Source: a virus (lineage: Duplodnaviria > Heunggongvirae > Uroviricota > Caudoviricetes). Taken from it: a DNA stretch of 4,544 bases. The position numbers and the translations under genes were made by a program. The stretch is from IMG/VR virus record IMGVR_UViG_2778261512_000017; one strand, 5' to 3'. Shown piece by piece: positions 299 to 4,544 of this stretch. The notes under the pieces were generated by a model that saw only the letters and a list, made by a program, of their open reading frames with translations, was not told where the DNA came from and ran no database searches. Position 1 is the stretch's first letter. Each line of letters starts with the position of its first letter.

Positions 299-637
299 AT
301 GACAGACATTACAGCCAATGTTGTAGTAAGCATGCCTTCGCAACTCTTCACTATGGCGCGTTCTTTTAAAGCGGTTGCCAATGGCAAAATTTATATCGGT
401 AAAATTGACACTGATCCGGTAAATCCTGAAAACCAGATTCAGGTTTATGTGGAGAACGAAGACGGTTCTCACGTTCCTGTTTCGCAACCAATCATCATTA
501 ACGCTGCTGGATATCCGGTATATAACGGACAGATTGCCAAGTTCGTTACTGTGCAAGGCCATTCTATTGCTGTGTACGATGCATATGGATCACAGCAGTT
601 CTATTTCCCAAACGTGTTGAAGTATGATCCAGATCAG
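299..637 (+). other. Tailspike N-terminal head-binding (particle-attachment) domain, residues ~1-113
   Basis: High similarity, recalled from memory, to the P22/Sf6/HK620 tailspike N-terminal domain. It ends at the conserved YDPDQ hinge (residues ~109-113), after which the sequence diverges. Confidence 0.8.
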
Positions 638-2101
638 CTAAGACAGGAGTTGTCTGGTGATGATGGAGCCTCATTAATAGGTCTTTGTCCTGGTCACACT
701 GTTGCAGATTTGATTGGTGCAGGTATCAGCGACGGAGATGCAATGATACCTGTTATTCAACCTTATACCGGAGCAGTAAAAAGGACTCAGCATGAAAAAA
801 ATGCAGAGAATCTTACAGTTGCAGATTGGGGAGCTGTGAGCGATGTTGAATCATCAATCTCAGCTCAGAAGATGATTGACGATATAGGTATGCTGATTGT
901 TCCCGAAGGGTTTACTCTCGTTGCAAAAAATCTCAACCTTTCTTCAGCAAAAAAAGTGATTGTAAAGGGGAAGCTCAAATTACCGTCTGGATGTGTCGAC
1001 TTTGACAGATTACTTTACGCAGCAGGTAATAACTCTGGTCTAATAATTCACATTAATGAGATTGATGGTAATAAAGCAGGACAATCAGGACAGATTGGAA
1101 CCCATCTTGTCTATCTGACAGAGTGTCAGAACGTAGATTTTTACGCTCATTATGTCCATGACCATTACTACCCTCGCACTTTTATAAGTGCACCATCACC
1201 AGATGGAATCCGCAATGACGGCTCTGGTTGTCTGTTTTTCTATCAGTGCCATTACTCAAAGTTTATCGTTGATCGGATTGAATCGTGGGGGCATGAAGCG
1301 TTTTATATTTACAAAACTAATAGAAGTATTGCGGCACTAGGGCATGCACAAGGCGCTTCTGGTGATGACGCTTATTCTGGTATTCAATTTAGTGGTGATT
1401 ATAACCGTTTGCTTTATGCATCTGTGGATCTTGCATCAGCATCAGGCATTGGTTTTGATTGCCGCTGGAGCATGGCAGGAAAGTTGATATCTACCAACAC
1501 GCAATTTTTCCACGGTATTAACTTTGGACATGCTGGACTGCCAACAACAGGATCCACAATTGAGAGTGTTTATGTTAATACTTGCGAGCAAAACGGTATT
1601 AACTTTGCGGCAGGATCGGCAAATACCAGAGTTCTTTCAGCTTATATTAATGCTGCAGGAAAAAGTGGTGTTAACCAATCGGATGGTGCTACAGATAACA
1701 CCGTGAATAATGCCACTGTTGTTAATTCAGGTATTGCACAGGTTACCAGTTATCAAAATAATCTTGTCTTGACAAATTGCAATCTTACAACCGTAACAAG
1801 TGCACTCATTCCAAAGCTAAACCCAACTGGAGGAGGTACATTTACAATAAGAAACGTCCTTCTTTCTGCAACTGAAAAGATGGTGATGAAGTCATTCAAT
1901 GGATTGAGTGGTGTAGCTTCAGCAACACTGGTTGATGAAAATATAACACCTTATTCACAAGTTGTGATTCACCCAGCAAATGCTTCAGCTGCAGCAGCAA
2001 ATGCATATGTTTTAAGTCAATCAAACGGAAGTCTTGTCCTTGCTACGCAGTCAGGTTCTCCAGCTGCAGGCGGAGCAAGCTTCAGATATATGGTGATATA
2101 A
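299..2101 (+). CDS. Phage tailspike protein (P22-like podovirus type): conserved N-terminal head-binding domain plus a divergent receptor-binding domain
   Basis: 600-aa ORF. The N-terminus [88 protein letters not shown]...NVLKYDPDQ matches, from memory, the conserved particle-binding domain of P22-family tailspikes (P22 gp9, Sf6 gp14, HK620). Downstream is Gly/Asn/Ser/Thr-rich sequence typical of beta-helix receptor-binding domains. Unambiguous start, SD present, terminator directly after the TAA at 2099-2101. Confidence 0.93.
638..2098 (+). other. Tailspike receptor-binding domain (probably a polysaccharide-binding/processing beta-helix), residues ~114-600; specificity unknown
   Basis: The sequence after the YDPDQ hinge ([15 protein letters not shown]...) does not match the P22 or Sf6 receptor-binding domains as I recall them. 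The composition (G, N, S, T, V, I rich, Asn-rich C-terminal region) fits a beta-helix fold. No GDS(x) or DxxH SGNH motifs are present, so there is no sign of esterase chemistry. Confidence 0.6.
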
Positions 2102-2131: not shown

Positions 2132-3973
2132 CTACTTTATCTTGCTAAAGATATATTCACCAACCTTAACTGACCATACCTTTGTAAGATGAGAGTTATC
2201 CGTGTAAACAGGCATATCTCCATCAACCACTCTACATTTGCCATCACTGCATATTGCTGGGCTAGGGTCAACGAAATGAACTTTTTGATATTGCTCAGCA
2301 AATATTTTAAATCTGCTATTCATTGCAGGCTCTATATAATCCTGAAACTCATTGCATTTTCTGAATAATTTATTAATAGGAAGGTCTTGTGATGCCAGGC
2401 ATTGATACATGATTTCCTTGCTTCCCTGGGTATCACCAACAATATATATCTGGCTGTTAGAGCCTTTAATATCATCAAGAAAATATTTCATTTCACTGAT
2501 GAAATCATTTTTATAAGAATTGTCAGTCGTTAGCGGGTTTCCAACCTTTCCAGTATACCACGCTTGCAACCATACGACTTTCTTGCCAGGATGGGCATTA
2601 ATGAATTCAACGGCCTTCTTATATCTTCCTTCGCAAATCTTTCTGAGTTTTTCAGAATAGTTTAGCGGCCCCATAAAATGCTTTGTAACTTTACAACCAT
2701 CCGCAGCTAGCGATGCTACTTTAAGACCGCTTTGTTTGAAGAAAGCGAAATAGTGTCTTGCATGGCTGTCACCAAGTATGATGTAGTCAAAGTCTTTTTC
2801 TGTAGCGTTGAAGTAGTCTACATTCTCTCCAGGCTGCATCCATAAATGTCCTTCGTAAGCCCGGCGGAACAGGTCTTTATTAAGATGGTAATCAGGATTC
2901 TTAATGCGACTACTTACCCCGTCGACATTGACATACAAAGCGGCTGCGAGACATACACAATAACAGAAAAGCAATCCCCATCCATAACCACGACGCTTCT
3001 CTACAAGGCTATAAAGTAGTGCTGAGGCTGACACTACACCAGCCAGATACCAGAAAATATTTAACTCAATTCCCGTCTTCTCGCAAAAGACGATTACCGG
3101 CCAGTGGATCAAGTATATTGAATAGGACCAGAGCCCAAGCTTTCCAATGATCTTACCAGAAAGAATGGTTCTTTTATTGTCAGCAAGAATGCAGATATAG
3201 GCCCCGAATACTGGAATAAACGCAATGTAGCCAGGCCACGCCAAGCTTTCGCTCATGAACGCGAGAGACAGCGCGATCAATATTAGCCCTGCTGATTCCA
3301 AAACTCGTCTTGATTTATCGCTACCTTTAAACGGGAACAGAAAAGCAATGCCTCCCAGCATCATTTCCCAACCTCTTGATGCGATGCTGAAGTATGATGA
3401 CACGGGATCAGTTCTGGTTATGTAAATGCACCATGCAAAAGAAACAACAGCAATCGCAACAACAAATATTTTAAGATTTTTTATTGACAATATCTTTGAC
3501 AGTGCAAGTAACACTATCGGGTAAATTATATAGAATTGCCATTCAACTGATAGCGACCATGTATGCAGTAAAAATTTTTGCTTTGATGTATCATCAAAAT
3601 AACCTGATTCAGACTGATAAATAATATTGGAAATAAATGTTAGACTTGCCGCAGAATGTTTTCCTATGATCTGTAATGTCATAGGCTCAAAGAACATATA
3701 ACCAATAATCAGTGTAAGGAATACAACTGCAACGAGAGCAGGAACTATACGTCTCGCCCTTGCTTTCAGGAAGTCAATAACCGAAAAAGAATTAGATTCT
3801 ATCCCTCTGAATATAATTGATGTCATCAAGTATCCAGATATGACGAAAAACACGTCTACACCAATAAATCCGCCTGGAATTATAGAAGATGAAAAATGAA
3901 ACAAAACAACACTTATAACAGCTATAGCTCTTAGGCCATTAATGTCATTTCTGAACTTTGTTGTAACTGTCAT
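2132..3973 (-). CDS. Two-domain membrane O-acetyltransferase (AT3 acyltransferase-3 domain fused to a C-terminal SGNH domain); OafA/Oac-like O-antigen acetylase, probable lysogenic-conversion factor
   Basis: 613-aa ORF with hallmark acyltransferase-3 motifs: R14 in NGLRAIAV, H26 in FHF, VDVFFVISGY (39-48), RRIVP (74-78), HTWSLSVEWQFY (137-148), and many hydrophobic helices through ~residue 350. The C-terminal region carries SGNH-type motifs GDSH (401-404) and DNSH (592-595, a DxxH pair). SD AGGA lies ~7 nt upstream of the ATG (plus coordinates 3980-3983). This is the architecture of Salmonella OafA/OafB-type O-antigen acetyltransferases, and the position beside a tailspike mirrors oac in Sf6. 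Confidence 0.92.
   Translation of the reverse strand: MTVTTKFRNDINGLRAIAVISVVLFHFSSSIIPGGFIGVDVFFVISGYLMTSIIFRGIESNSFSVIDFLKARARRIVPALVAVVFLTLIIGYMFFEPMTLQIIGKHSAASLTFISNIIYQSESGYFDDTSKQKFLLHTWSLSVEWQFYIIYPIVLLALSKILSIKNLKIFVVAIAVVSFAWCIYITRTDPVSSYFSIASRGWEMMLGGIAFLFPFKGSDKSRRVLESAGLILIALSLAFMSESLAWPGYIAFIPVFGAYICILADNKRTILSGKIIGKLGLWSYSIYLIHWPVIVFCEKTGIELNIFWYLAGVVSASALLYSLVEKRRGYGWGLLFCYCVCLAAALYVNVDGVSSRIKNPDYHLNKDLFRRAYEGHLWMQPGENVDYFNATEKDFDYIILGDSHARHYFAFFKQSGLKVASLAADGCKVTKHFMGPLNYSEKLRKICEGRYKKAVEFINAHPGKKVVWLQAWYTGKVGNPLTTDNSYKNDFISEMKYFLDDIKGSNSQIYIVGDTQGSKEIMYQCLASQDLPINKLFRKCNEFQDYIEPAMNSRFKIFAEQYQKVHFVDPSPAICSDGKCRVVDGDMPVYTDNSHLTKVWSVKVGEYIFSKIK
2135..2806 (-). other. SGNH (GDSL-like) domain, residues ~390-613, predicted periplasmic
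   Basis: Block I GDSH (S403, codon at plus 2765-2767) and C-terminal DNSH (D592/H595, plus ~2191-2200) match the SGNH catalytic Ser and Asp/His signature. The domain follows the last TM helix after a ~40-residue linker. Confidence 0.75.
2924..3973 (-). other. AT3 (acyltransferase family 3) integral-membrane domain, residues ~1-350
   Basis: Conserved AT3 motifs listed above plus multiple predicted transmembrane helices. The final hydrophobic segment GWGLLFCYCVCLAAALYVNV (331-350) is consistent with an extra helix that would place the C-terminal domain in the periplasm. Confidence 0.8.
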
Positions 3974-4110
3974 TTATAATCCTAAATTTAATGACTATAC
4001 CTTAGCCGTAATGATCACTGCAAAACAATGAGTTGAAGTGTATCACTACGCAGTAACTCGATCGACAGTAACGATTATGACAAATGTGCTAATCATGGCA
4101 CTTTCCTGAG
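3974..4110 (-). promoter_or_regulatory. Putative promoter/regulatory region of the acetyltransferase gene (exact promoter not resolved)
   Basis: Non-coding sequence directly upstream of the - strand ATG. On the - strand a TATAGT (plus 3994-3999) sits 18 nt downstream of a weak -35-like TTGCAG (plus 4018-4023), with a GATC (plus 4013-4016) inside the spacer. A second GATC (4060-4063) lies in the palindrome TCGATCGA, flanked by direct CAGTAAC repeats (4051-4057 and 4066-4072). The promoter assignment is tentative because the leader would be very short. Confidence 0.3.
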
Positions 4111-4544
4111 GATAGTCATAAATGGAATGTATGGATTGTTCAAATAATTAGCAAAAAATTATATCTCTAGGCATAAAGACGGTGATACGTCTTGTGTTGG
4201 AAATCTTAGTGACACGGGACAAAATGGGACGCACAAAGCTTTGCACTTGATTGCAAGGATTTGTGTCATTCGATAGTTAAGGTGGCTTACTCTACCTTCT
4301 CATCAATCCAGTCCGCCCACCACTGCATCATTTCTCTGCGCTTATCGTGGCAGATGCCTCACTATCACACGGTGATGGTTCATTACTGGTTTGCATAATG
4401 GATAGAGAACTGAGGATAAAAGATATCCCAAAACCCCAAAATCTCATCTTTAGGATTTGCAGAAAGGGAGGCGTGAACAAATACCTGCGCATGAAAACGG
4501 AACTAGTCCAGATGTGATGTTTGTGGTGATCACATACATCATTA

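Follow-up and report, generated by a model that had tools for sequence, protein, structure and literature searches.

The O-antigen glucosylation (gtr) operons of P22-like phages are the closest described relatives of the regulatory DNA considered here, and gtrABC of phage P22 is the example with which it is most directly compared (Broadbent et al., 2010; PMC2909390). The gtr signature consists of four GATC sites arranged in two pairs, the members of each pair lying 13 bp apart (at -110/-97 and -46/-33), together with three OxyR half-sites spaced 32 bp, of which half-sites A and C cover the pairs (PMC2909390). A P22 construct reduced to -45 to +34 (strain sMV175) is uniformly Lac+ at 349 MU with GATC4, the site at -33, methylated, and its activity falls in a dam mutant (PMC2909390). 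OxyR requires two boxes, and probes that carry a single box show no detectable OxyR binding (PMC13505456). In prophage BTP1, the acetyltransferase gene gtrC stands behind a disrupted signature and is uniformly ON and not phase variable, and the resulting O-antigen modification protects against superinfection (Kintz et al., 2015; PMC4413052). In S. Enteritidis and S. Typhi, the acetyltransferase-encoding gtr operons (family 2) undergo phase variation (PMC4413052).

Other systems offer partial parallels. The agn43 (flu) gene of E. coli follows the principle of placing GATC inside OxyR sites, in the form of three GATC within one OxyR site that lies downstream of the promoter. The oac gene of phage Sf6 encodes an O-acetylase of 333 aa with an AT3 domain only, and is located between tailspike and int with a putative promoter of its own. 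In HK620, a terminator of the prophage excision transcript is found downstream of int.

The window, by which we mean the whole stretch of 4,544 nucleotides that was analyzed, covers the end of the late operon in a P22-like (Lederbergvirus-type) prophage. We propose that its last part, 3974-4544, contains a sigma-70 promoter (4078 to 4030, minus strand) that descends from the gtr regulatory region of P22-like phages and that is now joined directly to the gene of an AT3-SGNH O-acyltransferase. The Dam/OxyR switch, to which intact gtr operons owe their phase variation, has been lost along the way, with GATC4 and a lone OxyR(C)-like half-site surviving and with half-sites A and B, GATC1 and GATC2 replaced by unrelated DNA.

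Gene context and GATC sites

The genes of the window and the GATC sites of its last part are as follows.

Window start: 3' end of ant, at the end of the late operon
299-2101, plus strand: tailspike gene with the P22 head-binding domain (Pfam)
2132-3973, minus strand: gene (ORF) of a 613-aa O-acyltransferase with AT3 and SGNH domains, converging on the tailspike gene and served by the region 3974-4544
4012-4017: palindrome TGATCA around the GATC at 4013
4059-4066: palindrome TCGATCGA around the GATC at 4060
4526-4533: palindrome GTGATCAC around the GATC at 4528

Both domains of the acyltransferase are recognized by Pfam (Acyl_transf_3, 1.2e-29; SGNH, 2.8e-26), and its 45% identity to BTP1 GtrC extends over the AT3 domain only. 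A Shine-Dalgarno AGGA (3983 to 3980) lies 6 nt ahead of its ATG. The order of tailspike, opposite-strand acyltransferase and int 3' end is shared with Sf6 oac and is also seen in E. coli Tig228. As in P22, the regulatory region has the integration module on one side, together with the same hairpin, and on the other a lysogenic-conversion gene pointing towards the tailspike gene; the two differ in host, which is E. coli here, and in integration module, which here belongs to the 2851/sbcB type. As in BTP1, an AT3 (+SGNH) acyltransferase sits beside the tailspike of a P22-like prophage.

The sequence-only reading described 3974-4544 as an ORF-poor region with three palindromic GATC sites, and this description stands. 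No ORF reaches 60 aa, the longest being 56 aa (4347-4517, plus strand) and 54 aa (4328-4492, minus strand); each of the three GATC lies within a longer palindrome, at the positions listed above; and CAGTAAC direct repeats bracket GATC-4060 at 4051-4057 and 4066-4072. The caution that the number of sites is at chance level was also borne out, with 3 in 571 bp against 2.05 expected from base composition (P(≥3) = 0.34), and the entire window shows no enrichment (16 GATC, 16.4 expected). None occurs between 4064 and 4527. GATC is embedded in a 6-bp palindrome at all three sites of the region and at 1 of 13 elsewhere in the window (Fisher p = 0.007, post hoc), a context that for GATC-4060 and GATC-4528 is attributable to ancestry, in a gtr-type promoter and in a umuD-like coding remnant, respectively. 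Specifically, the TCGATC at 4060 is the inherited -35 and OxyR(C) arm of a gtr-type promoter, and GTGATCAC at GATC-4528 falls in the V-I-T-Y-I-I codons of the umuD-like remnant, where phage mEp234 has identical bases. No such ancestry was found for the TGATCA at 4013, which is located 47 bp from GATC-4060, at about +15 of the predicted 5' UTR, and whose counterpart in P22 is GATT.

The gtr-type promoter and its missing switch parts

Upstream of the acyltransferase, the following elements were assigned.

3974-4030, minus strand: predicted 57-nt 5' UTR, with the start taken from the P22 gtr register
4032-4078, minus strand: segment with homology to gtr regulatory regions, in their promoter-proximal part (nhmmer, shuffles, MAFFT)
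4037-4045, minus strand: extended -10 TGATACACT, which in P22 gtr is TGCTACACT (alignment)
4060-4065, minus strand: -35 hexamer TCGATC, containing the GATC at 4060-4063 that corresponds to gtr GATC4 (-33); hexamer and 17-bp spacer are shared with P22 gtr
4061-4075, minus strand: vestigial OxyR(C)-type half-site ATCGTTACTGTCGAT, 7/10 to consensus, of the form ATCG-N7-CGAT, at -45 to -31
4079-4217, no strand assigned: AT-rich stretch of 139 bp, 36% GC, in place of P22 OxyR(A), OxyR(B), GATC1 and GATC2 (BLAST, OxyR scoring)

The starting point was a comparison of the sequence upstream of the acyltransferase with that upstream of P22 gtrA, in which P22 also served as the positive control for OxyR scanning. 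Along GTAGTG[A/C]TACACTTCA the window matches the -10 region of P22 gtr at 15 of 16 positions, and a wider comparison by MAFFT alignment finds the -35 hexamer TCGATC, the 17-bp spacer and TACACT arranged as they are in P22 gtr. For a non-circular test, a profile was prepared from six gtr regulatory regions retrieved by BLAST with P22 (P22, ST64T, ECO95, BTP1, ST-35 and an Enterobacter phage), from which the window was excluded. Searched with nhmmer, this profile produces a single match in the window, from 4078 to 4032 on the minus strand (E = 1.8e-5, 16.7 bits), a score reached by 0 of 3000 dinucleotide shuffles of the region, the highest of which scored 11.9. The copy of the gtr-like promoter in E. 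coli Tig228 is likewise significant in a 1.44-Mb search (E = 0.0057). The same profile search found no promoter of this type at about 110 other acyltransferase loci, nor at Sf6 oac, whose own promoter is consequently not of the gtr type. A second HMM, prepared from IMG/VR loci, gave E = 5.8e-7 and was not relied on, because those loci had been chosen with a pattern partly designed on the window. Taken on sequence homology, and not on gene position alone, the link to gtr is judged to be real.

The homologous stretch is short, amounting to 47 aligned nucleotides, and the similarity fades near the predicted start of transcription, with the nhmmer envelope ending at 4013. That start is placed at about 4030 by borrowing the register of P22 gtr, where GATC4 lies at -33 and transcription begins 25 nt before gtrA (PMC2909390). 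The 5' UTR would then measure about 57 nt in the window, compared with 25 nt in P22, and its predicted RNA fold is unremarkable (z -0.9). All three known copies of this arrangement (the window, Tig228 and the metagenome contig L181) are 99-100% identical over the regulatory part, 3960-4230, and for this reason their conservation is uninformative as to which bases are constrained.

Common to the window and to P22 gtrABC are therefore TCGATC, GATC4 at -33, the 17-bp spacer, TGnTACACT and an OxyR(C)-type half-site at -45 to -31. Unlike P22, the window has none of GATC1, GATC2, GATC3, OxyR(A) and OxyR(B), and the ATG of its AT3-SGNH gene comes directly after the promoter, with no gtrA or gtrB between. 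The earlier suggestion of gtr-like Dam/OxyR control thus survives in its first half, in that the promoter is homologous and GATC-4060 is GATC4; the switch to which it referred is gone. GATC3 (-46) has been mutated to AATC (4076 to 4073), no pair of GATC at 13-bp spacing exists in the region, and 4079-4217 contains no GATC at all, leaving the -33 site at 4060-4063 as the only one of the four. The two upstream sites singled out in that suggestion, at 4013 and 4060, do not form a gtr pair, since they are 47 bp apart and gtr pairs are 13 bp apart. OxyR half-sites over the GATC pairs, which had been proposed as the thing to look for, were found in one register only. The C-type half-site over GATC-4060 scores 7/10, whereas the B and A registers reach 2-5/10 and 2-4/10, respectively; the corresponding P22 half-sites score 8 (A), 10 (B) and 8 (C). 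Nowhere in the region does a half-site or tetramer score exceed the level of shuffled sequence, and a tetramer scan at the 22-bp (oxidised) spacing likewise stays at that level.

Alignment to the regulatory region of agn43, also proposed at the outset, is not significant (local score 22, null 19.7 ± 2.5). The window does share TCGATCGA and the principle of GATC inside an OxyR site with agn43; it differs in that no three GATC fall into one OxyR tetramer site and no tetramer rises above the shuffle level. The resemblance to gtrA*-gtrC(BTP1) is closer (Kintz et al., 2015; PMC4413052), as both are P22-like prophages in which an AT3-type acyltransferase follows a gtr-type promoter whose upstream signature has been destroyed. 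In BTP1, however, GATC3 and GATC4 persist along with a remnant of gtrA, and the signature is interrupted by the insertion of a umuD-like gene and LexA box. In the window GATC3 is lost too, there is neither a gtrA remnant nor a LexA box (a scan found none with fewer than two mismatches), and the replacing DNA upstream is different; the umuD-like fragment of the window begins about 260 bp from the promoter segment and its 5' end is absent.

Loss of switch parts is not peculiar to this locus. When IMG/VR was scanned with a pattern for the promoter core, 51 loci were obtained, 50 of them scorable, of which 14 have all four GATC, 22 only GATC3 and GATC4, and 14 GATC4 only. The full signature is accordingly missing in 36 of 50 viral loci, a survey in which loss of GATC4 would be invisible because the search pattern required it. 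Switch decay is recurrent in phages. In 19 of the 22 loci with GATC3 and GATC4, a LexA box from a divergent umuD-like gene abuts OxyR(C). All of the unique survey sequences that were read are followed by gtrA, and the window differs from them in having the acyltransferase joined straight to the promoter.

As a separate observation on these loci, a near-consensus LexA (SOS) box, TACTGTATAT..ATACAGTA, abuts OxyR(C) in BTP1 (L123, about 3480-3520) and in a second region (L124, about 2960-2990). A LexA box occupies this position in 31 of the 50 IMG/VR loci (L130-L180), and it belongs to the divergent umuD-like gene, so that the '365-nt insertion' described in BTP1 appears to be a umuD-like gene with its SOS box. 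In BTP1-type regions, LexA might thus act on the gtr promoter.

Expected expression of the acyltransferase

The reading that we consider likely is that the promoter is constitutive, perhaps modestly Dam-sensitive, and not a phase switch. OxyR binds only where two half-sites adjoin and is therefore not expected to bind here; if it does not, the GATC would be methylated in all cells and the promoter would fire constitutively. Phase variation is not expected, because constructs and phages reduced to this state are uniformly ON and a single OxyR box is left unbound. Every lysogen would then carry a modified O-antigen and would probably be protected against superinfection, as in BTP1, while Dam, by methylating the GATC of the -35, may adjust promoter strength to a modest extent but cannot create a heritable ON or OFF state. 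For an E. coli P22-like prophage with a gtr promoter minus its switch, O-antigen acylation is thus predicted to be a stable and not a phase-varying trait, which bears on serotyping, on the masking of phage receptors and on the prediction of stable O-antigen modifications. In E. coli phages, gtr-type regulatory DNA is seen here to be coupled with an unrelated acyltransferase, and loss of switch parts is frequent among viral contigs; neither circumstance alters the current understanding of the mechanism.

A more ambitious version, which we hold to be improbable, is that the lone -35 GATC makes promoter strength methylation-dependent and that phages repeatedly dismantle the gtr switch. The drop in activity of the minimal P22 promoter in a dam mutant hints at the first part. 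If true, expression of the acyltransferase would shift transiently after replication or after the entry of unmethylated or hemimethylated phage DNA, and the repeated loss of the switch could mean that selection has favoured constitutive superinfection exclusion rather than bet-hedging.

Where a constitutive gtr-derived promoter could be most seriously mistaken is in the DNA immediately behind it, and the main uncertainty is whether the site at 4101 to 4074, or other sites in the 139-bp stretch, add regulation. The promoter scan reports at 4101 to 4074 the combination GTGCCA-16-CATAAT with an upstream TG, which matches the consensus at 9 of 12 positions, and the 36% GC stretch accompanies the gene in all three copies. 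From these facts it could be argued that the acyltransferase is driven or controlled mainly from 4079-4217, by this promoter or by silencing or regulator sites, and that the gtr-like promoter is a leftover of little or no activity. We regard this as unlikely, given that the scan found one promoter-like hit where shuffled sequence would be expected to give 2.2, that the gtr-type promoter retains the -35, spacer and extended -10 that are intrinsically active in P22, and that the stretch has no known relative to back a function. By BLAST, 4079-4217 is present in 1 of 5426 E. coli genomes and matches no phage record; the larger interval 3960-4230 finds one E. coli genome at 99.3% identity and zero phage records, and a metagenome scan added one further copy, L181, identical over the region. 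Apart from weak P22 similarity in its first few bases beside the hairpin, the relatives of 4079-4217 are these two near-identical copies. The upstream regions of 16 distant relatives of the acyltransferase (34-62% aa identity) are unrelated to it and contain neither GATC pairs at 13 bp nor a gtr-type promoter. In two unrelated lineages among the relatives (L095, L099, L098), two GATC 43-45 bp apart do occur within 70 bp of the start codon, a spacing that we take as coincidence because the sequences do not align.

A descent of the promoter from gtr could also be denied altogether, with the resemblance put down to chance and the whole region regarded as a non-functional spacer. The shortness of the aligned stretch speaks for this, as does a pairwise local alignment with P22 alone, in which 5 of 1000 shuffles equal or exceed the observed score; we nevertheless judge it very unlikely in view of the profile result, in which no shuffle reached the score, and of the agreement in position, orientation, spacer length and flanking synteny, the last including a hairpin shared with P22.

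Even less credence is due to a working Dam/OxyR switch, in which OxyR bound over GATC-4060 and GATC-4013 would compete with Dam and set a heritable ON or OFF state of the acyltransferase. In its favour, the promoter is truly homologous to gtr, has GATC4 in its -35 and retains an OxyR(C)-like half-site, and phase variation in family 2 operons (PMC4413052) offers a precedent. The region lacks, however, three of the four GATC sites and has one of the three half-sites; GATC-4013 lies past the predicted start, 47 bp from its partner and outside any half-site; the P22 -45 to +34 construct and BTP1 are both uniformly ON; a single OxyR box is not bound; and no significant similarity to agn43 exists.

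Module remnants and the attachment site

With the gtr-derived constitutive promoter confined to the acyltransferase-proximal side, the rest of the region would be non-regulatory debris at a module junction, beyond which the attachment site lies outside the window. Its parts are listed below.

4216-4269, minus strand: conserved terminator-like hairpin (4269 to 4229) followed by CCAUUUUGUCCC (folds, shared sequence)
4287-4346, minus strand: 3' remnant of an IntS-type integrase gene, the last 19 codons and stop (tblastn)
4338-4544, plus strand: umuD/humD-like pseudogene fragment that runs off the window end and contains GATC 4528 (tblastn)

The hairpin folds at -11.8 kcal/mol in the window (z -1.4) and at -17.3 kcal/mol in P22 (z -3.8). 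In P22 this element is located between attP and the gtr regulatory region, and in HK620 just downstream of int, at the aligned position of the annotated terminator; the phage L record has a 'terminator' feature, at approximate position, under a 185-bp match that includes the element. Positions ~4242-4347 of the window align to HK620 1-110, which comprises the int 3' end and terminator. In contrast to HK620, the integrase of the window is reduced to 19 codons, and since the gene is cut off there, the terminator element is a relic, which possibly still insulates the acyltransferase promoter. The integrase piece matches residues 367-385 of Tig228 IntS at 89% identity (tblastn, E = 2.7e-7) and is a remnant, as stop codons lie upstream in its frame; a complete intS gene is present in E. 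coli Tig228 (L001).

The umuD-like fragment has no N-terminus, is frameshifted near 4418-4439 and contains an internal stop. It matches phage UmuD-like proteins in two frames (tblastn, E = 1.3e-7 and 2.7e-9), and in E. coli GPEC1292 PGAP annotates a HumD pseudogene at the equivalent place. The ORFs of 56 and 54 aa, in which a Pfam search found nothing, are frames of this pseudogene (tblastn).

These remnants lie where two modules meet. Positions 3900-4347 are 98.4% identical to E. coli Tig228, where the same tailspike-acyltransferase pair is followed by complete intS and tRNA-Arg (argW). Positions 4218-4544 are 91-96% identical to an unannotated module of the Stx phages 2851 and 1717, mEp234, E212 and many E. 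coli chromosomes. Some part of 3900-4544 is matched by 1,734 of 5,426 E. coli genomes, and the best ones among the matches listed all span 4218-4544. The 130 bp common to both modules (4218-4347) comprise the terminator-like hairpin and the last 19 IntS-type codons. The metagenome contig L181 is identical to the window over all 571 bp and extends beyond its end.

Two side observations on this mosaic may be recorded. At 4338-4347, two 5'-truncated genes diverge, the intS 3' end on the minus strand and the umuD-like 3' part on the plus strand, and this joint is common to 2851, 1717, mEp234, E212 and many E. coli chromosomes at 91-96% identity; we read it as an old, widely spread recombination scar. 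The acyltransferase cassette adjoins an IntS/argW module in Tig228 and a 2851/sbcB-type module in the window and L181, which is consistent with the shared 130 bp (4218-4347) having acted as a linker for module exchange by recombination.

The alternative offered by the sequence-only reading, that the region holds the attachment site or a prophage boundary, can be given almost no probability: it falls in the tailspike-to-integrase interval where P22 has attP and it contains an integrase gene remnant, but the core CGTAATCGTGAAA is absent from the window and occurs in L181 at window-equivalent 4675-4687, followed by host DNA next to dacD, the attP of mEp234 comes 133 bp after the shared module ends, and the window has no tRNA. 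The boundary was nonetheless sensed in about the right place, as it is close by, just past the window end and outside 3974-4544. The core equivalent, 131-143 bp beyond that end, belongs to the sbcB/dacD (phage 2851) type and not to the tRNA type; in L181 it marks the junction of prophage and host, because past it the similarity is to E. coli chromosomes, as far as dacD, and not to phages. In mEp234 the 2851-type attP core CGTAATCGTGAAA is annotated and is followed by the integrase gene. That no tRNA-like sequence is visible in the region agrees with an ARAGORN scan of the window, which returned zero tRNA, and an Rfam scan of the window returned zero matches.

On both sides of the 2851-type core, GTACCAAA repeats are present (in mEp234, L003, at about 4395-4420 and about 4640-4690, and in L181), all at positions outside the window. 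They are probably arm-type binding sites of the integrase, a putative assignment; the combination of core CGTAATCGTGAAA and GTACCAAA arm repeats that would characterize such an attachment site does not occur in the window.

Further minor observations concern the tailspike end of the window. L181 is 97.7% identical to the window from 1933 on and 78% identical over 252-1428, with no match at 1429-1932, an uneven identity that makes the tailspike gene, too, a mosaic between two prophages that are nearly identical elsewhere. A short hairpin, GCCTCTgagtAGAGGC, with flanking A and T runs lies at 2102-2131, where the tailspike and acyltransferase genes converge, and looks like a shared bidirectional terminator. 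Another terminator-like hairpin, CCCAGCttcgGCTGGG, followed by a T-run, is found at 218-240, after ant.
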